A DNA stretch of 32,000 nt from Candidatus Hermodarchaeota archaeon. GTDB taxonomy: Archaea; Asgardarchaeota; Heimdallarchaeia; Hodarchaeales; Hodarchaeaceae. The position numbers and the translations under genes are program-made. The notes under the pieces are model-generated. The model was not told the origin of the DNA. It made no database searches and saw only the letters and a program-made list of their open reading frames with translations. Within the stretch, counting starts at the first letter, position 1. Each line of letters begins with the position of its first letter. The DNA lies in NCBI GenBank assembly GCA_048886185.1, contig JBHLKY010000001.1, forward strand, positions 240,001 through 272,000. Direction: 5' to 3'. Shown piece after piece: positions 22,794 to 32,000 of the stretch.

Positions 22794-25700
22794 ATGAAGG
22801 ATAAGGTTAAAACATTGTATTCCATAAAAAATGGATTTAAAATTATGGTTATAGGCATTTTACTCCTAAACAGTCTCTCAATCACAATTTCTTGTAGTCA
22901 AGAAAAGAATTCTGACACTCAAAACTTCATTCTTGATATATTACGAGGTTTTGGCATAACAGGAAAAAAACAAGGGCCTTATCGTGTATTACCACACCTT
23001 ACAAGCACTTCTCAAATAAATCATCAATCAAGTATTAATATTACATCTGGACCACGTTATAGTTGGTCTGAACCAAATTGGCCCTACAAGAAAAATATAA
23101 CTATACTGGCTTCAAAGATCAGTGCTGATCTGACTAATTTTCCTCTAATGATAGATCTTTTTGATTCAGATTTAAGAGATACATCAAAAGTTCAAAACTC
23201 TGGGGAGGATATATTATTTATTAATGAAAACGGCTGGACTTGGACAGATGAACTTTTAACGAATGGTGGTTTTGAAACTGGGAATTTAAATGGGTGGATT
23301 ACATCAGGTAACTGGGAGGTGGGTACAAATCCTCCTATGGGGAATAAAGGGCCTCAATCAGGTAGTTTCTGCGCTTATACTACTGATGGTGGTAGTACTA
23401 CTGATTATATTCAACAAGATGTAGATCTTTCAAGTTACATAGATTATATCGATAGTGGTAAAGTTATTGCTAATGTTTCAGCATGGGCTGTAATGGCGGA
23501 GGATGATTTTGATGAAACAATTATCAGGTTTCAATATCTTGATGCTTCGAAAACAGTAATATCAGCTGTATTAGATACTGGCATACAGATGCCTAGCGTA
23601 TGGACTAAATTTTCCGCACTCTTGAGTCCTATCCCTGTCAATACTAGATATATTAGAGTTTGGGCAAGATGTCATGAACTTGGTTGGGACGCTGGTAGTG
23701 TTGACAGTTTTAGTGTAAAAATTGCAAATATGGGGGTAAAATTAGACCATGAAATTGAACTTTTTGAACAAACATACAACACAACACATGCTCATTTAGT
23801 TGCGTGGGTTAAAACTAATTTGTCAAGCTCTCAAAATACATTCTTGTCAATGTATTATGGTAATCCCACTGCTGGAAATCAAGAAAACCCAGTTGCTGTC
23901 TGGGATGAGAATTATGTTGGTGTGTGGCATTTAGGGGAAGAAAGTGGGAGTGCTACAGATTCTACAACTTATGGAACTAGTGGAACAATTTCTGGAGGAG
24001 TAACGCAAAATATATCTGGAAAATTAGGGAAAGGATATGATTTTGATGGGAATGACGGATCATCAGTGCTTTTTGGTGATCCAGGGGATGGGCATTTAGA
24101 TTTTGGTTTAGGCAGTTTTACCGTTAGTTATTGGATGAATATTGACCAGAGTACTAGTGACTACCAATTACCAATTTATAAAGGAGGAACAACTAATAGT
24201 GAGGCTGGGTATGAAATGGAAACAAATCCAACCGCTGAATCTATTGATTTTATGACTTCAGATGGAACCACAGCCTATTCAAGTGGTAACGCTGGTGTTA
24301 CATTTGACACCTGGGCTTATATGGTTGGAGTGGTTGATCGATCATCTAATTATATTTATCTTTATCAAGATGGGAATGATCAAGGGAGTTCTAGTATCAG
24401 TTCGCTAGGAAGTGTGGATAATTCCCATAGTATGGCCTTATCACCAAATCCTTATCCTGTTGACGGAATGATAGATGAAGTACGAATTTCTAAATCCATT
24501 CGCTCTTCTGCATGGATTGAAACTGAATATAATAACCAATACGATCCTAGCAGCTTCTATTCGATGGGAGAAGTTGAATATAAGTGGGCTTTCCCCACAT
24601 TTGCATATAGAAAAGCAATAACAATAAATGCCACCAAAATAAGTGGAAACTTTACCGATTTTCCCGTCCTTGTTAATTATTATGATAGTGATCTCCATGA
24701 TCCTACCAAAGTACAATCTGATGGTGATGACATCCTTTTTACCAATGTAGTTGGCACACAACTTGACCACGAAATTGAACTTTTTAATCAAAATGGAAAT
24801 GGAACACATGCCAATTTAGTGACTTGGGTAAAAGCAAATCTTTCGAGTGTAGAAGACACTCTCATTTTTATGTATTATGGTAATTATGCAATTGAAAGCC
24901 AAGAGAATCCAGAAGGTGTTTGGGATTCCAACTTTAAGATGGTTCACCATTTTGATGAAACAACAGGTACAACTTCTTATGATTCTACAAGTAATAATGA
25001 AGATGGAACAATTATGGGTAGTATTAGTCTCGAGGTAACGGGTAAAATAGGAAATTCATATCAATTTAACGATACATCTCTGGATCAAAAAGTAGGATTA
25101 CCACCTTTAGGAACATTAAATGCATTCACAATGGAAATTTGGGTGAATCCGAATACTGGTGAGAAAGAAGCTATTTGGGGAAGGGAATTCACAATCGGAT
25201 CAAATGCGCAAGGAGTAGGGATTACATACTCAACATACGACCCCAAACAATTTGGTGCAATCATACCTAATGGAGCTGAGGGATCAGGGAGTACGAGAAT
25301 AGATATTAATGCAAATAGTGAAACATCAGTAAATGCATGGAATCATCTTGTTGTTATATATAATGGGTCAGTTCTTAGGATGTATGTTAATGGAGTTGAA
25401 GTGGCAGATTCACCTAAAACTGGTATGAGTTCTCCTAATTATTTATTTACTCAAGAACCATATTCTCCTTATATGGGATCATATTTTGGCTATACAGGGT
25501 ACAATTGGAACGCTGAAGAAGAATATTTTGACGGTAAACTTGATGAAGCCCGACTTTCAGATATCGCAAGAAGTGCTAATTGGATATTAACTGAATACAA
25601 TAATCAATATAATCCAAGTAGTTTTTATTCAATTGGAGAGGAAGAGGAAAAAGAAGGACCCCCAGCTATTCCAGGTGAATACTATGTAAACAATGACGGA

Positions 25701-28700
25701 TCTAATGTTGATTATTCAGGTGATATGGGGAATTTAGAAGATTTTAATAATATGAAAGGTAAGGATTTGAGTTATGCAAATCTTCAAGAAACAGCTGCAG
25801 TTACAATTGAATGGAATGAATCATTTGAAACTGTTAATGGTGTTCAATCTTATACAAGCGAGAATTGGTGGACTGATTACTGGATTCAAGACACCACTGA
25901 TGACTATAATTGGAGTATTAGCGATACATACCAGACTCCCTCAGCCAATACTGGAGCTAGTGGAGCCCAGCAAGGCACATGGTTTATTTATACAGAAGCT
26001 AGTAGCAGCAGATATGGTAATTTTATTCTTTATACTGCTAATAGTATAGATTTCAGTAGTTTAAACAATGAGAAAATCGAATTTTATTGGAATATGTTTG
26101 GTGCTAATATTGATGCTCTTTATCTTGAACAGAATACTTCGGGATCTTGGTCAAGTGTTTGGAGTCAGGTAGGAGCAGGTTCACCAGATCAATCTACATG
26201 GAATTTTTCTTCTGTTGATTTAAGCGGTCTAAGTGGAATCGGTTTCCTTAGATTTCGCGGTGTTACTTCAGGTGGTTATGCAGGAGATATCTCTCTCGAT
26301 AATGTTAACATAACCTCTATAGCACTTACTACTAATTACCGTCTAGAACAGGAAATTCAATGGACAAATATACCTTACGAATTTGAAAAAGAAGAACTTT
26401 GTTTATATGTCGGAACGACTGGTACGGAGGATATAATTGTAGAGGTTTGGAATGGGAGTAATTGGGTACAGGTTTTTAGTGATTTAATCGCTAATTCATG
26501 GAATAATATTTCAATTACTAGTTATCTGAACTCTTCTACATTCACTGTACGTTTTATTGATGGTACACAAACCTCTGATAACACAACACAAGATCAATGG
26601 CAAATAGATGCCGCCTTAATTCATGTTTGGAATGAGGTAATTGATGAAACACCTCCTGTGATCAATGATTTTGGAATAGATGATTCGGGAACTGGAACAG
26701 GGAGATTTTGGGCTGATGTGATAGATACTGGATCAGGAGTAGCAAATGCAACTATAAAAGTTAATGGAACTAATTATAGTATGAGTTATAACGGTAGCTA
26801 TTGGATTTATCAGCTGCCATCGCTTTCATTTGAAGACTATTTCAGCTATCAAATTGTAAACAGTTCTGATAATAATGGGAATTTCTTAATTAATCCATCA
26901 AACGAGGAAGCTTATACATTTGATTATGATATATTAGCTCCTACAGTCGTGGATTGGGAGTACTACAACACACTCGAGCTATATGGCACCTTCAAGGCGA
27001 ATATTACTGATTCCTGGGGAGAAATCGATACTGTGCGGGTGAATGTCACTACGTACAACATGCAAGCCCTCATGGGACAATACACTACTTTTGGAAGTAC
27101 TATCTTTGCATATTTGAACGATACACTCGAGATGCCTAATGGGCTGATGGATTTTCAGATCATTGTTAATGATACGGCGGGGAACGAGTTCATCTCAACC
27201 ACACATCAGGGAGATGTCTTTTCTAACCACCCCCCCATAGTAGAGAATCTCACGCTCAGTCCCGCTATCCCCTGGAGTAATTGTTCTCTCACCCTCACCT
27301 ATGATTATTATGATGAAGATGACCACAGTGAGGCAGGAACCGAGATTCGGTGGTACAAGAAGAATGACTCTGTTTTCCTGTTAGAATCTGCTTATAATGA
27401 CACTAAGGTGATTCCTGCCTCGGCTCTGGAGGTAGGGGATCAATGGTACGTCAATGTCACCCCGAAAGATGGGGAATTATTTGGTGAGACAAACACCTCT
27501 GCCATCATTACTGTTTTAAATACTCCTCCGTCAGCTTCCAATGCTGTGGTCTTTTATTCAGGTGCCATTCCCTATACAACTTCGACCCTCAATATTGATT
27601 ACACTTATGACGACCATGAGGGGGATGGGGAGGATAGTACGAACCGTCAAGTGGAATGGTATCGAAATGGCGCGCATTATCCTGCGCTTGATAACAGCAC
27701 GAGTGTCTTGCCAGGGAACACTACCAAGGGGGAGACCTGGGCTTATCGGCTCCGTGTCCATGATGGTACCGGTTATTCCAGCTGGGTGACTTCTGATACT
27801 ATCCTGATTCGCAACAGTCTACCGCAAGCAGTCAATCTTGCATTACCCTCTAATCCGACCACGCTGGATGATCTTGTGGCTGATTGGGACATGATTGATG
27901 CTGATGGGGATTCGGAAGATCTCGGGGCGGTACTCATCTATTGGTATAAAGATGGGGAAAATCAATCTACTTGGGTTAATTCAGTGACCATTGGGGCGGG
28001 GAACACCTCTAAGGGGGAGACCTGGCGGTTTGAGATTCGGGTGTATGATGGGGAAAATTATTCGGTTGTGACCCCCCTCAATCCGCCTGTGGTGATCCTT
28101 AATTCTGTGCCCACCGTGAGTACTGTCGAACTTGCTCCGACGATTCCCGTCACCACCGATGGTCTGACTGCGACTTGGGAGGATGCTGATGTTGATAATG
28201 ACGCTCTTACATATACCATACGGTGGTATATTATGGGCGTGGGCTTACAAGCCGCTTACAACGATCTATCAACTGTCCCTGCTAGTGCGACTGTCAAAGG
28301 GCAGATTTGGTACTACAACCTTACAGCTTTTGATGGAGAGGATTATTCCCTGGAAGTAAGCTCACCTCAGGTCACGGTTCAGAATACCCCTCCTGAGGTA
28401 AGTAATTTAGCTCTTACTGCTGCTCCCAAGACGATGACTAATCTTGTGGCGAGTTGGAGTGCTGCTGATAATGACACTGGGGATTCCTTAACCTTTAATG
28501 TTACCTGGTACCTTGAGGGAGTAGTGAACTGCAGTTGGCTCACCTCCGCCACTAGTGCGACACTGACTGCAGGGAACACCACCAAAGGTGACCGCTGGTC
28601 GTTTACAGTTCAGGCATATGATGGGGAGGCGTATTCCAGTGTTATCTCCCTCGGGTATAATCGGACTATTCTCAACACTGCCCCAGTAGTGGCAAACCTT

Positions 28701-31700
28701 ACGCTTACCTCCATGCCGACGACCACAGATCCTTTACTGGCTACCTTTGATTATTCCGATGCAGATCTTGCAGATAATGCGAGTCTCATCTTTAATATCA
28801 CGTGGTATCGGAATGGGCTGGAACAAAGCGCTCTCGCCAATACCACCAGTATTGGTTCAGGAAATACTACGAAATCCGAGTTCTGGTGGTTTACCGTCCA
28901 AGCCTATGATGGAGAAAGTTTCTCTTTGAAGCTCGAGTCGGTTCATGTGCAGATTCTCAATACTGCCCCTGAGGTTAGCAATCTTGTGATTACTCCGCTG
29001 AGTCCCATAACCACCATGGTTCTCAGTGCGAGTTGGGATGAAGTGGATGCAGATGGCGATAGCCTGACTTATACCATTCGGTGGTATGTCGTGGGGCTGG
29101 GGCTGCAAGCGGCGTACAACAATTTACTGAGTGTTCCTGCCAGTGCGACCGCCAAAGGGCAGGCCTGGTACTACAACCTTACCGCCTTTGATGGAGCCGC
29201 TTTTTCCATCGAAACCAGCTCCTCTCAGGTTGTCATCCAAAATTCTTCTCCCGAGATCGATTCCCTCGTGGTCACGACTAATCCGACCACGCTGGATGAC
29301 CTGATTGCTGGTTGGAACGCTAATGATAATGATACCGGGGATTTACTAACCTTTAATGTTACCTGGTATCTGAATGGGGAAGTAAATTGCAGCTGGTTAA
29401 CGTCCACCTCTAGTACTACCCTCGCTGCGGGAAATACCACTAAGAATCAGCTCTGGAATGTGACCGTACGGGCATATGACGGGACATCTTATTCCAACAC
29501 AATTACTCTAGCGACTAATATCACTATCCTCAATTCTAAGCCCACCGTAGAAAGTCCTTCTTTCAATAACACCTCTCCTGATGCAGTGGACGATTTTCAG
29601 ATTACTTACACCTTTGTGGATGCGGATGCTGGAGATGTTGAAGATCCAGGGAAGATGATTGTCTATTGGTATGTCAACTGGAAGTATAATGCCACTTTCC
29701 AGAATCAGACCACGATTTATGCTGCGAATACCACTGCCACAGAGGTGTGGTATTACATTCTCAGGGTGTTTGACGGGGAAACATATAGTGATAATGTCAC
29801 CTCGGAACAGGGGGTCTATATTGGGGGTGGCAGCACCAACACACGTCCGCTAGCTATCGATCTAACATTAACTCCTGCGTCTCCTCTCACACATGAGGCG
29901 CTCATTGCGAATTATAGTTTCTCTGATGGGGATCTCGACCCCCAAGTTGCGTATGAAATTCGCTGGTATAGGAATTCTGGTGGTGGCTTCCAGCTCCAGT
30001 CCCAGTATAATAATTTATTCATTGTGCCAGCGAGTGCCACCTCCAAGGGGCAGGAATGGAATTTTACCGTGAGAGTGTTTGATGGTATTCAATGGAGTGA
30101 GCTCAATGTGTCTACCACGATCACAATTGCAAATACGAACCCTGAGGTTACCATCGCTGATATTACCACGGATCCTCAAACGACTGATGATCTGGTAGCT
30201 AGTTGGACTTCGAGGGATAATGATAGTGATAGTTTAACTTTTATCCTCACTTGGTATATTAATGGGATTGAAAATGCCACGTTTGCAAATAAGACGGTGA
30301 TCGGAGCGGGAAACACCACCAAAGGAGAGAAGTGGTATTTCACTGTCCAGGCCTATGATGGGGAAGGATTCTCCAATGTGTTCCCATTGGCTGCGAATGT
30401 CACCATCCTGAATACCGCCCCAACAGCGGATAATTTAATCATTACCACTAATCCTACGACTATTGATGATTTAGTAGCAACTTGGGATTATTTTGACATT
30501 GACAATGATCCCCGAGATGATGGGCTAGCTCGGATTTGCTGGTTCAAAAATGGGGAAAACCAAACTGCATTAACTAATCAAAAAACTATTGAGGCCACTA
30601 ATACCTCTAAAAATCAGGTTTGGTGGTTTACAGTCCGTGTCTTTGACGGGGAGGACTATTCTGGGCTTTATGAGTCCGCTCACATACAGGTCTTAAATAG
30701 TATTCCTATGGTGGGAAATTTGGAAATTAGGATGTCAGACCCCAAGACCACAGATGAGTTAGAGGCTCAATGGGTTGCTGTTGATGATGACAACGACATC
30801 CTAAGCTACACCATCAAATGGTATAGAGATGCTGTCTATCAGTCAGCTTGGGATAATGAGATCACAATTCCTGCCAGTGCCACCTCAAAAGGCGAAACCT
30901 GGTATTTTACTTTGAAAATGTTTGATGGGAGCGAGTATTCCTTAGAAGAGACCCTTAGTCCTGGTGTCCTTATTCTCAATACTCTTCCTGTCGTTGAAGA
31001 CCTGGCGTTAACCCCGGATCCTCAAACGACTGATGATCTGATAGCTAGTTGGATGTCGAGGGATAATGATAGTGATAGTTTAACTTTTATCGTTACCTGG
31101 TATGTCAATGGGATTGAAAATGCCACGTTTGCGAATAAAACGGTGATCGGGGCGGGAAATACTACCAAAGGGGAGGAATGGTATTTTAGTGTCCAAGCAT
31201 ACGATGGAGAAGGATTCTCCAATGTGTTCTCACTGGCTGCGAATGTCACCATTCTGAATACCGCTCCCACAGCGAGTAATTTGATGATTACTACTAATCC
31301 CACCACGCTTGATGACTTAGTTGCTGCTTGGGATTATTTCGATGTAGACAACGATCCCCGAGATGATACGCTAGCTCGGATTTGTTGGTTCAAGAATGGA
31401 TTGAATCAAAGCACTTTAGTCAATCAGAAAATCATTGGGGCAGGTAATACCTCCAAGAATCAAGTCTGGTGGTTTACTGTTCGTGTCTGTGACGGGGAGA
31501 CCCACTCGCTTAGTATCTACGAGTCCGCTCACATTTCTATTCAGAACTCTCTACCTTATAGTTCCTCCGCTCTCCCCATTCCCGTGAATCCTTCTAAGGC
31601 AAATGGCCTAGTATTGACTCTACCTGCCCTTCTTGCGGCTCTCTCAGACCCTGATCCGAGTGATGACATTGAAGTAGTCAGGATTCGCTGGTATAAGGAA

Positions 31701-32000
31701 GGTGTGCTGCAAGGGACGTTAAATGACTCCTTAATCGTTCCTGGAACCCGATTGACTAAAGGAGAGAGGTGGAATTATTCCATTGTGCCTTTCGATGGAG
31801 TCGGTTATGGGGTGGTGTGTGTGTCTGCGGAGATAGTCATCTTAAACTCTCGACCGACCATCATTAACACTTATTTCACGGCAACAACTGTTACCACCAT
31901 TAGCAACCTCGTGATCAGCTATCAAGCGGAGGATGCCGATGGGGACCCTATTATTGTCTCAGGGGTCCGCTGGTATCGGTATGATGCAGGGATTCCTGGG
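22794..32000 (+). CDS. Giant secreted adhesin-like surface protein, at least 3069 aa, truncated by the window end: signal peptide, 2x(DUF2341-LamG), MAM, Ig-like domains, then >=17 Ig/cadherin-like repeats
   Basis: Absent from the ORF track, consistent with having no stop inside the window. ATG 22794 gives MKDKVKTLYSIKNGFKIMVIGILLLNSLSITISCSQ. The same frame was read by hand through the domains to ...DADGDPIIVSGVRWYRYDAGIPG at 32000. Confidence 0.9.
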   Translation, partial: MKDKVKTLYSIKNGFKIMVIGILLLNSLSITISCSQEKNSDTQNFILDILRGFGITGKKQGPYRVLPHLTSTSQINHQSSINITSGPRYSWSEPNWPYKKNITILASKISADLTNFPLMIDLFDSDLRDTSKVQNSGEDILFINENGWTWTDELLTNGGFETGNLNGWITSGNWEVGTNPPMGNKGPQSGSFCAYTTDGGSTTDYIQQDVDLSSYIDYIDSGKVIANVSAWAVMAEDDFDETIIRFQYLDASKTVISAVLDTGIQMPSVWTKFSALLSPIPVNTRYIRVWARCHELGWDAGSVDSFSVKIANMGVKLDHEIELFEQTYNTTHAHLVAWVKTNLSSSQNTFLSMYYGNPTAGNQENPVAVWDENYVGVWHLGEESGSATDSTTYGTSGTISGGVTQNISGKLGKGYDFDGNDGSSVLFGDPGDGHLDFGLGSFTVSYWMNIDQSTSDYQLPIYKGGTTNSEAGYEMETNPTAESIDFMTSDGTTAYSSGNAGVTFDTWAYMVGVVDRSSNYIYLYQDGNDQGSSSISSLGSVDNSHSMALSPNPYPVDGMIDEVRISKSIRSSAWIETEYNNQYDPSSFYSMGEVEYKWAFPTFAYRKAITINATKISGNFTDFPVLVNYYDSDLHDPTKVQSDGDDILFTNVVGTQLDHEIELFNQNGNGTHANLVTWVKANLSSVEDTLIFMYYGNYAIESQENPEGVWDSNFKMVHHFDETTGTTSYDSTSNNEDGTIMGSISLEVTGKIGNSYQFNDTSLDQKVGLPPLGTLNAFTMEIWVNPNTGEKEAIWGREFTIGSNAQGVGITYSTYDPKQFGAIIPNGAEGSGSTRIDINANSETSVNAWNHLVVIYNGSVLRMYVNGVEVADSPKTGMSSPNYLFTQEPYSPYMGSYFGYTGYNWNAEEEYFDGKLDEARLSDIARSANWILTEYNNQYNPSSFYSIGEEEEKEGPPAIPGEYYVNNDGSNVDYSGDMGNLEDFNNMKGKDLSYANLQETAAVTIEWNESFETVNGVQSYTSENWWTDYWIQDTTDDYNWSISDTYQTPSANTGASGAQQGTWFIYTEASSSRYGNFILYTANSIDFSSLNNEKIEFYWNMFGANIDALYLEQNTSGSWSSVWSQVGAGSPDQSTWNFSSVDLSGLSGIGFLRFRGVTSGGYAGDISLDNVNITSIALTTNYRLEQEIQWTNIPYEFEKEELCLYVGTTGTEDIIVEVWNGSNWVQVFSDLIANSWNNISITSYLNSSTFTVRFIDGTQTSDNTTQDQWQIDAALIHVWNEVIDETPPVINDFGIDDSGTGTGRFWADVIDTGSGVANATIKVNGTNYSMSYNGSYWIYQLPSLSFEDYFSYQIVNSSDNNGNFLINPSNEEAYTFDYDILAPTVVDWEYYNTLELYGTFKANITDSWGEIDTVRVNVTTYNMQALMGQYTTFGSTIFAYLNDTLEMPNGLMDFQIIVNDTAGNEFISTTHQGDVFSNHPPIVENLTLSPAIPWSNCSLTLTYDYYDEDDHSEAGTEIRWYKKNDSVFLLESAYNDTKVIPASALEVGDQWYVNVTPKDGELFGETNTSAIITVLNTPPSASNAVVFYSGAIPYTTSTLNIDYTYDDHEGDGEDSTNRQVEWYRNGAHYPALDNSTSVLPGNTTKGETWAYRLRVHDGTGYSSWVTSDTILIRNSLPQAVNLALPSNPTTLDDLVADWDMIDADGDSEDLGAVLIYWYKDGENQSTWVNSVTIGAGNTSKGETWRFEIRVYDGENYSVVTPLNPPVVILNSVPTVSTVELAPTIPVTTDGLTATWEDADVDNDALTYTIRWYIMGVGLQAAYNDLSTVPASATVKGQIWYYNLTAFDGEDYSLEVSSPQVTVQNTPPEVSNLALTAAPKTMTNLVASWSAADNDTGDSLTFNVTWYLEGVVNCSWLTSATSATLTAGNTTKGDRWSFTVQAYDGEAYSSVISLGYNRTILNTAPVVANLTLTSMPTTTDPLLATFDYSDADLADNASLIFNITWYRNGLEQSALANTTSIGSGNTTKSEFWWFTVQAYDGESFSLKLESVHVQILNTAPEVSNLVITPLSPITTMVLSASWDEVDADGDSLTYTIRWYVVGLGLQAAYNNLLSVPASATAKGQAWYYNLTAFDGAAFSIETSSSQVVIQNSSPEIDSLVVTTNPTTLDDLIAGWNANDNDTGDLLTFNVTWYLNGEVNCSWLTSTSSTTLAAGNTTKNQLWNVTVRAYDGTSYSNTITLATNITILNSKPTVESPSFNNTSPDAVDDFQITYTFVDADAGDVEDPGKMIVYWYVNWKYNATFQNQTTIYAANTTATEVWYYILRVFDGETYSDNVTSEQGVYIGGGSTNTRPLAIDLTLTPASPLTHEALIANYSFSDGDLDPQVAYEIRWYRNSGGGFQLQSQYNNLFIVPASATSKGQEWNFTVRVFDGIQWSELNVSTTITIANTNPEVTIADITTDPQTTDDLVASWTSRDNDSDSLTFILTWYINGIENATFANKTVIGAGNTTKGEKWYFTVQAYDGEGFSNVFPLAANVTILNTAPTADNLIITTNPTTIDDLVATWDYFDIDNDPRDDGLARICWFKNGENQTALTNQKTIEATNTSKNQVWWFTVRVFDGEDYSGLYESAHIQVLNSIPMVGNLEIRMSDPKTTDELEAQWVAVDDDNDILSYTIKWYRDAVYQSAWDNEITIPASATSKGETWYFTLKMFDGSEYSLEETLSPGVLILNTLPVVEDLALTPDPQTTDDLIASWMSRDNDSDSLTFIVTWYVNGIENATFANKTVIGAGNTTKGEEWYFSVQAYDGEGFSNVFSLAANVTILNTAPTASNLMITTNPTTLDDLVAAWDYFDVDNDPRDDTLARICWFKNGLNQSTLVNQKIIGAGNTSKNQVWWFTVRVCDGETHSLSIYESAHISIQNSLPYSSSALPIPVNPSKANGLVLTLPALLAALSDPDPSDDIEVVRIRWYKEGVLQGTLNDSLIVPGTRLTKGERWNYSIVPFDGVGYGVVCVSAEIVILNSRPTIINTYFTATTVTTISNLVISYQAEDADGDPIIVSGVRWYRYDAGIPG
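23064..25640 (+). repeat. Two tandem DUF2341 + LamG (concanavalin A-like) modules in the giant protein
   Basis: Unit 1 starts at 23064 and unit 2 at 24585. Both have W...Y(K/R)K.ITI...KIS...T.FP, LDHEIELF, MYYGN...QENP..VWD, DG..DE.R.S...RS..WI.TEYNNQY.PSSFYS. Confidence 0.85.
25806..26320 (+). other. MAM domain within the giant protein
   Basis: GTWFIYTEASS, IEFYWNMFGANIDALYL, VWSQVG...W...VDL and LRFRGVTSGGYAGDISLDNVNI match the MAM consensus (YxEAS; FxYHMxG; GDIAxDDI). Confidence 0.75.
27225..32000 (+). repeat. Tandem array of 16 complete plus 1 partial Ig/cadherin-like repeats (93-102 aa)
   Basis: N-x-x-P repeat starts at 27225, 27519, 27813, 28101, 28383, 28674, 28959, 29241, 29532, 29838, 30132, 30411, 30696, 30978, 31257, 31545 and 31845. 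Consensus: NxxP...L.A.W...DxDxD.....WY..G........TxKG..W...V..(Y/F)DG. Confidence 0.92.

Follow-up and report, generated by a model that had tools for sequence, protein, structure and literature searches.

A gene for a giant surface protein, which begins in a 32,000-nucleotide (nt) stretch of the genome of Candidatus Hermodarchaeota archaeon (GenBank assembly GCA_048886185.1, contig JBHLKY010000001.1, positions 240,001 to 272,000; hereafter the window, G000:C1:240001-272000, with G000 the source genome), raises the question of whether the domains of its tandem-repeat stalk follow an order longer than the single domain and, if so, how that order arose. An earlier note, made from the sequence alone, had read the stalk as a super-repeat of three domain types, A, B and C, with a glycosylation site missing from every third domain. 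Here, we show that domains 1 to 16 form a true super-repeat, (A-B-C)×5 followed by a divergent A-position domain (A′). We consider it probable that the stalk as a whole is made of 23 domains resembling fibronectin type III (FN3), that its super-repeat descends from a conserved (A-B-C)×3 + A′ core, and that the E-F loops of the B and C domains carry candidate glycosites.

Results

Period and register of the repeats

Delimiting the repeats at a recurring N-[TS]-x-P linker, from nt 27228, gives 16 complete repeats of 93-102 amino acids (R1 to R16, nt 27228-31847; Table 1) and a truncated 17th at the end of the window. A single alignment column sorts them: PASA stands in R1, R4, R7, R10 and R13, PGTR in R16, and an N-T-T or N-T-S sequon in the other 10, which is exactly the distribution that had been described, VPGTR-type R16 included. 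Among the 8008 placements of six sequon-free domains in 16, three are strictly periodic. The A-B-C units measure 876, 858, 879, 858 and 849 nt, so that the "about five" super-repeats of 846-879 nt proposed earlier are recovered as five units of 849-879 nt.

Mean identity stands at 47.8% for repeats three apart (lag 3), 40.8% for lag 6 and 43.8% for lag 9, compared with about 35% (33-37%) for lags not divisible by 3, and repeats that share an index modulo 3 are 43.2% identical versus 34.6% for other pairs (label permutation p = 5e-5; 1 in 20,000 trials). The predicted clustering by position therefore holds statistically, but it is only partly visible as a tree: a tree of the protein's 23 repeats resolves (R4,R7), (R12,R15) and (R5,R8,R11,R14) with R6 and leaves 14 of 20 branches open, the domains being short. 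Neighbouring repeats are roughly 34-35% identical, whereas lag-3 pairs reach 84% (R14 versus R11; 78% for R15 versus R12 and 61% for R4-R5 versus R7-R8). At the nucleotide level R11-R12 and R14-R15 are 75-84% identical and repeats overall reach 65-84% at best. BLAST returns one self-match, about 520 nt long, 83% identical and offset by about 846 nt, and Tandem Repeats Finder reports no arrays in the 20-32 kb part of the window, the DNA copies having diverged too far.

The other type-specific features are less regular than had been thought. The F(N/I)(V/L)TW motif ascribed to B repeats is present in four of the five (R2 is without it) and also occurs in the C-type R6. The B-C loops of C-type repeats are indeed 2-3 residues longer and usually more acidic, with R2 and R6 as exceptions. 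Nor does the period run the length of the stalk. Searched with a hidden Markov model of the repeats, the complete protein yields 23 domains (amino acids 1479-3726), and beyond the window R22 alone has the loop sequon, which R17-R21 and R23 lack, confining the period to domains 1-16 of 23.

Table 1. Coordinates of the giant gene and its repeats in the window, with the corresponding domains (d) of the 17-domain orthologues
Feature	Type	Positions	Strand	Loop motif	Orthologue domain	Remark
Giant open reading frame		22794-32000	+			5′ 9.2 kb in window; reading frame open at window end
Unit 1	A-B-C	27228-28103	+		d1-d3	ancestral
R1	A	27228-27521	+	PASA 27414-27425	d1	
R2	B	27522-27815	+	NTT 27717-27725	d2	
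R3	C	27816-28103	+	NTS 28002-28010	d3	
Unit 2	A-B-C	28104-28961	+			
R4	A	28104-28385	+	PASA 28278-28289	d4	
R5	B	28386-28676	+	NTT 28575-28583	d5 and d8	B clade
R6	C by index	28677-28961	+	NTT 28863-28871		groups beside B clade
Unit 3	A-B-C	28962-29840	+			
R7	A	28962-29243	+	PASA 29136-29147	d4	
R8	B	29244-29534	+	NTT 29433-29441	d5 and d8	B clade
R9	C	29535-29840	+	NTT 29727-29735	d6	ancestral; GGGSTN linker at end
Unit 4	A-B-C	29841-30698	+			
R10	A	29841-30134	+	PASA 30027-30038	d7	ancestral
R11	B	30135-30413	+	NTT 30312-30320	d5 and d8	B clade
R12	C	30414-30698	+	NTS 30600-30608	d9	d9 type
Unit 5	A-B-C	30699-31547	+			
R13	A	30699-30980	+	PASA 30870-30881	d4	d4-like
R14	B	30981-31259	+	NTT 31158-31166	d5 and d8	B clade
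R15	C	31260-31547	+	NTS 31446-31454	d9	
R16	A′	31548-31847	+	PGTR 31740-31751	d10	divergent A-position domain; last domain fitting the period
R17, first half		31848-32000	+		d11	cut by window end
R17-R23					d11-d17	run on past window, off A-B-C pattern

Orthologues and growth of the array

Among 30 relatives searched, the domain turned up in 15 of the 18 genomes that belong to the genus and in none of the others. Full-length orthologues from five other species of the genus have 17 domains arranged as (ABC)×3 + A′, and their one-to-one positional orthology with the window's repeats (Table 1) was established by best-hit mapping and by a tree with the motif columns masked. That tree supports a clade of d1, d7 and d10 (97/88) and a B clade of d5, d8 and R5/8/11/14 (99/95), and it places R12 and R15 with d9. 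In the older orthologues, clustering survives for two sets of domains alone, the B pair (d5/d8) and the A group (d1/d7/d10).

In these 17-domain orthologues lag-3 identity has dropped to background (29-31%), but the order of loop states is preserved: A-B-C three times, then A′. The loop sequon was found in 0 of 43 cases at A positions across 11 orthologues that are 37-84% identical; it was kept at d3 and d5 in 11 of 11, at d9 in 9 and at d8 in 8. Of 151 distinct sequon sites in d1-d13, the d3 and d5 loop sequons are the only ones retained in all 11, and the loop column is the most used sequon column overall. On this comparison of sequences, (ABC)×3 + A′ is the ancestral arrangement of the genus, and because the 17-domain orthologues keep it, the period is not only a product of recent duplication. 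The same period that had been expected in homologous arrays is thus present in them.

The clade that includes the window (the source genome's copies on C1 and C10, the genome G003, and homologues P0002-4 and P0007) gained two three-domain blocks, which took the array from 17 domains to 23. Unit 5 has a mosaic make-up, in which an A domain of the d4 type precedes copies of R11-R12, as expected from recombination between like domains. Most likely, the two extra blocks arose by unequal homologous recombination between domains of the same type. Such recombination would keep the register automatically, without selection on the register itself, and near-identical domains would never become adjacent.

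Base composition within the gene is also uneven. The GC content at third codon positions (GC3) rises from 0.25 in the N-terminal 1,478 codons to 0.47-0.52 in the array, transmembrane (TM) helix and tail, against a genome GC of 0.35; the switch lies near window position 26,990 (about codon 1400 of the giant open reading frame) and its high side runs to the end of the gene. The C10 near-copy and both G003 copies have the same switch; the source genome's other paralogues, with GC3 about 0.25 along their whole length, do not, and neither do the 17-domain orthologues. This pattern points either to the 3′ two-thirds of the gene having been acquired long ago, as part of a chimera, or to GC-biased conversion among recombining copies.

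Fold and geometry of the domain

With alignments drawn from orthologous units, AlphaFold2 (AF2) models the four domains R13-R16 at a predicted local distance difference test (pLDDT) score of 92.8 and R14 alone at 96.3. In these models the domain is an FN3-type seven-strand β-sandwich. VIA-align matches the single-domain model best to the titin FnIII A77-A78 tandem (Z 9.5, 88 residues at 2.8 Å), and its top 50 matches are mostly FnIII domains from titin, CD45 and cytokine receptors (Z 9.5-7.8, 83-90 of 93 residues aligned). Because Z scores in this range are common for the FN3 fold, we take the match to indicate fold class, not homology.

Family assignment by sequence was less productive. The best single domain reaches E = 0.084 and 13.5 bits with PF00041 (fn3), below its gathering cut-off of 25, and 4 of 83 family members match it at E < 1; of the bacterial cadherin-like and Big_9 families (PF17803, PF17892 and PF17963), Big_9 was matched by 3 of the 83 members, the best at a sub-threshold E = 0.018. 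All Pfam matches of the 83 single domains were below threshold. A profile search of Protein Data Bank (PDB) sequences gave nothing below E = 0.2. Foldseek returned nothing at E ≤ 0.001 for the single domain and, for the four-domain model, generic tandem Ig/FN3 rods only (TM-score 0.2-0.35). ESM-Atlas neighbours at TM-scores of 0.91-0.93 include almost identical predicted domains (TM-score 0.93) from other archaea as well as clusters labelled bacterial cadherin-like (Cadherin_4/5) or Big_9, labels that may belong to other domains of those proteins.

In the R14 model strands E and F are joined by a short 3-10 turn, which contains the sequon Asn. By standard FN3 topology the E-F loop emerges at the C-terminal pole, whereas the B-C and F-G loops lie at the N-terminal one. 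A glycan on a B or C domain would therefore adjoin the next domain and face its acidic loops: the DxDxD motif is in the B-C loop, with D28 unchanged across the family and D30/D32 almost unchanged across the genus, and an invariant D-G is in the F-G loop. By analogy with the extenders of RTX adhesins (PMC4083281, PMC7493085), Ca2+ binding by the DxDxD loops is plausible. The P-x-S-x-T...W loop appears to resemble the L-x-P-x-T-x-Y "tyrosine-corner" region of canonical FN3. A complex prediction that paired the four-domain unit with a second copy returned a score of 0.00 ("no answer") and speaks neither for nor against self-association.

The loop Asn as a candidate glycosite

All ten N-T-T/S loop sequons precede the protein's only TM helix, which is C-terminal, and so fall in the extracytoplasmic segment. 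In a set of 2,136 unique domains, S or T follows at +2 in 82% of those with the loop Asn versus 39% of those without (Fisher p = 5e-62, the sequences not being independent), and this coupling points to selection on the whole sequon rather than on Asn alone. The ectodomain contains 107 sequons, or about one per 37 residues, against 56 ± 6.5 after shuffling, and the 186-residue tail contains one. The genome encodes an STT3/AglB homologue (PF02516, 171 bits, G000:C3:99109-100296), and experiments on cultured Asgard archaea, Hodarchaeales among them, have demonstrated glycosylation at N-X-S/T (PMC11284389; bioRxiv 10.1101/2025.02.26.640444). Taken with the lack of Asn in bacterial homologues, the +2 coupling, the roughly two-fold enrichment and the transferase make it reasonable to read N-T-T/S as a glycosylation sequon, as had been proposed, and the loop Asn of B and C domains is most likely N-glycosylated by AglB.

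The wider domain family

A profile search finds the domain, about 94 residues long with the consensus ...D-x-D-x-D...I-x-W-Y-K-N-G...P-x-x-x-T-x-K-G-E-x-W...D-G...N, in 10,253 representative archaeal and bacterial proteins at E ≤ 1e-3 (1,862 at E ≤ 1e-30). We tallied loop states in the 120 best database homologues. No loop sequon occurs in 48 of the 120 arrays, including all homologues treated as bacterial; the latter, for several of which the sources name Myxococcota genera, Poribacteria and Latescibacteria, have the loop consensus V-P-[SA]-S-A-T-x-K-G-[EQ], with no Asn. The A motif is thus the consensus of the bacterial homologues, which argues that the A-type loop (PASAT-KGx-W) is the ancestral state and that B and C domains derive from it by gain of Asn. 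What the earlier note had described as a site missing from every third domain is better described as a site acquired by the other two.

Among the 43 Hodarchaeales arrays with at least four loop sequons, "sequon-free, sequon, sequon" repeated twice (.NN.NN) occurs in 27, compared with 3.3 ± 1.7 (maximum 9) when each array is shuffled, and sequon states agree at 0.76 for lag 3 versus 0.39 for lags 1 and 2; the arrays are mutually related, and these figures are descriptive. Some subfamilies have one sequon per three domains. Typing the domains of distant paralogues (P0005, P0009, P0031 and others) as A, B or C by best hit with the motif masked gave no A-B-C order, and shared descent and repeated origin of the distant.NN periods can for that reason not be separated.

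Other periods occur in the family. P0074 (Methanomassiliicoccales by source) and P0090 are two-domain super-repeats, with lag-2 identities of 64% and 53% versus 31-34%, and P0026 has a five-domain period (67% versus 48%). On the minus strand of G003:C5 (L031+L032), a 6,884-residue open frame holds 56 copies of the domain, from which loop sequons are nearly absent; its lag-3 signal is only weak (49% versus 44%). Within the source genome, a near-copy of the giant gene on contig C10 (G000:C10:1-7428, L033; 83% nt identity, 21 domains) is cut by the contig start and keeps the A-B-C pattern except for one lost sequon. The other paralogues, on C37, C24, C9, C38 and C18, have 12, 9, 11, 4 and 2 domains, respectively, and the older copies on C37, C24 and C9 have mostly the P-x-S-x-T-type loop and no period. 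In G003 the giant genes stand in tandem (L026 on C147, L027 on C135), an array and C-terminus being followed after about 300-450 nt by the next N-terminus and array, with both loci cut by contig ends.

Protein architecture and gene context

Read on in the contig, the open reading frame encodes 4,196 amino acids, stays open over 12.6 kb and ends at C1:275384, 3,384 nt past the window. The order of parts is a signal or anchor, LamG-type and MAM domains, the 23 FN3-like domains, a TM helix and a cytoplasmic tail of about 186 residues. The single hydrophobic helix near the C-terminus, followed by this tail, indicates a type-I anchored surface protein. On the whole protein, Pfam detects only the N-terminal Laminin_G_3 and MAM, and NCBIfam adds NTTRR-F1; with both libraries the repeats matched nothing. 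The last 460 residues, post-TM tail included (L040:2002-3381, + strand), had no Pfam match at E ≤ 0.001, and no RTX family was among the Pfam matches of the giant protein or of the neighbouring genes. Close homologues are listed publicly under Candidatus Hodarchaeales, Kariarchaeaceae or Heimdallarchaeota as "DUF2341 domain-containing protein". The adjoining genes (MaoC dehydratase, PCMT, low-molecular-weight phosphatase, beta-lactamase-family, DinB and GNAT) are unrelated housekeeping genes and suggest no partner.

Discussion

Descent of the super-repeat from an (A-B-C)×3 + A′ core, with candidate E-F-loop glycosites on its B and C domains, gives the array a plausible role and history. We propose that the array would be a long, sequence-diverse, semi-rigid and glycan-shielded spacer that holds the N-terminal lectin-type head off the membrane. 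A domains retain the ancestral P-x-S-x-T loop and B and C domains have N-T-[ST] in the E-F loop, which would place glycans at the B-to-C and C-to-A junctions and leave the A-to-B junction without a loop glycan. Growth by three-domain blocks would lengthen the stalk while neighbours stay about 35% identical, and type-specific features would then be held position by position. Adjacent homologous domains of high similarity tend to co-misfold (PMC4660218, PMC6863430), and the neighbour identity of about 35%, being below that level, fits a pressure against misfolding.

Several observations weigh against this account. The three types are not each monophyletic in the masked tree: the other A clade excludes the d4-type A domains, d2 and d6 group together, and R6 stands beside the B clade. 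The loop sequons of d2 and d6 are poorly conserved (2 and 6 of 11 orthologues), and the.NN pattern of distant Hodarchaeales paralogues does not follow the same domain bodies. Unequal recombination is deduced from its outcomes, the step from 17 to 23 domains and the mosaic unit 5, rather than from mapped breakpoints, and Ca2+ binding is read from the motif. The interpretation in the earlier note is supported in part: its three-domain super-repeat and its reading of the sequon hold up, whereas a Ca2+-stiffened rod and a register for lateral or self interaction are so far unsupported.

Whether the period itself has a function is a separate matter. If A domains at fixed spacing were contact faces, as in lateral packing, homophilic zippering or the matching of a surface lattice as in titin, they would recur roughly every 11-13 nm by our own estimate for an FN3-like domain of about 4 nm. 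The motif states that orthologues keep although their lag-3 identity has fallen to background would suit such a role, as would a register maintained through both expansions, mosaic unit 5 included, and the scarcity of sequons in the A domains of the closest clade (0-1 in R4, R7 and R13 versus 5-6 in B domains). However, recombination between like domains preserves register automatically, the A domains of other orthologues hold 2-5 sequons elsewhere and so are not generally glycan-free, the period covers only 16 of 23 domains, and the neighbouring genes, being unrelated, point to no partner. We regard a functional period as unlikely. Its boldest form, in which period-3 glycan placement would be a structural code exposing A domains as a zipper-like face for homophilic or partner-cell adhesion or for bundling into a lateral palisade, is drawn by analogy and seems to us a long shot; if true, the protein would act as an adhesion receptor with a periodic pattern, found in the archaea most closely related to eukaryotes and similar in logic to titin super-repeats or cadherin zippers.

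The opposite position, that the period is a mere trace of block duplication and N-T-T/S a structural loop variant instead of a glycosylation site, draws on the T at +1, a structural residue found family-wide in all types, bacterial ones included, on the altered loop chemistry of G-N in place of S-A, and on the 75-84% DNA identity that R11-R12 and R14-R15 still share. In addition, the first Asgard species to be studied yielded only one protein with heavy N-glycosylation (PMC11284389). A structural variant accounts poorly, however, for the strong coupling of +2 S/T to Asn, for the absence of Asn from every one of the 48 sequon-free arrays, with all tallied bacterial ones among them, for the standing of this loop as the most conserved sequon site in orthologues 37-84% identical, and for a sequon enrichment of about two-fold that is limited to the ectodomain. 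We therefore think this explanation quite improbable. That the periodic array is an assembly artefact, a collapsed or chimeric repeat in a metagenome-assembled genome, is scarcely credible: the assembly does consist of 75 contigs with an estimated contamination of 4.96%, and the start of contig C10 truncates a near-copy of the gene, but the identical domain order occurs in the independent assemblies G003 (two copies), P0002 (4,259 amino acids), P0003, P0004 and P0007, the frame is open throughout, and the repeats, at 65-84% nt identity at best, are too divergent to be easily mis-assembled.

Multi-domain super-repeats are a textbook feature of eukaryotic muscle giants, and we know of few descriptions of them in prokaryotic surface proteins. 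The A-band super-repeats of titin (7- and 11-domain Ig/FnIII) and the (Fn3-Fn3-Ig)n arrays of twitchin and projectin likewise have a fixed tandem order of distinct β-sandwich types (PMC3859903 and general knowledge); there, too, domains at equivalent positions of the unit are more alike than neighbours, and it is titin FnIII that supplies the best structural matches of our single domain. In contrast to the Ig and Fn3 domains of those proteins, the Asgard A, B and C types all belong to one domain family and differ mainly in the loop sequon and the B-C loop length. The Asgard protein is also extracellular, membrane-anchored and archaeal, with no sequence-level relationship to them (fn3 E = 0.084).

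The Ca2+-stiffened BIg extenders of RTX adhesins, such as MpIBP region II (PMC4083281, PMC7493085), are similar in being long β-sandwich spacers that project ligand-binding domains and in having conserved acidic loops near domain junctions. Their domains are often near-identical (about 120 in MpIBP), whereas Asgard neighbours are about 35% identical, and they are exported by a type I secretion system (T1SS), retained at the outer membrane and not N-glycosylated, unlike the Asgard protein with its C-terminal TM anchor and cytoplasmic tail. Archaeal S-layer glycoproteins of thermoacidophiles have one sequon per 30-40 residues (PMC11284389), a density similar to that of the Asgard ectodomain, and the Asgard genome encodes an AglB-type oligosaccharyltransferase; S-layer glycoproteins form lattices, whereas the Asgard protein is fibrillar and anchored by a single pass. 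Our literature search found no description of one conserved sequon placed periodically and no multi-domain super-repeat described for Asgard archaea, whose giant proteins are mentioned only in passing (PMC8813620).

Gram-positive surface rods offer a further comparison, the G5-E units of SasG/Aap and the FIVAR-GA units of Ebh/Embp being tandem multi-domain units as well. Those units combine two modules of different folds, are not known to have glycan patterning and belong to wall-anchored bacterial proteins. The architectural principle, a super-repeat in a tandem β-sandwich stalk, is thus a known one; what is new is its occurrence in an Asgard surface protein together with a conserved, periodic candidate glycosite.

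The locus provides a clean and conserved example of a super-repeat in Hodarchaeales, descriptively solid and of moderate impact, and recombination between like domains would offer a simple mechanism by which a register propagates itself. It also draws attention to a large archaeal and bacterial domain family that has neither a Pfam model above threshold nor a sequence-matching solved structure. Each B and C domain carries one highly conserved candidate glycosite, and since glycoproteomics has already been used on cultured Hodarchaeales (bioRxiv 10.1101/2025.02.26.640444), occupancy of these sites is directly testable.

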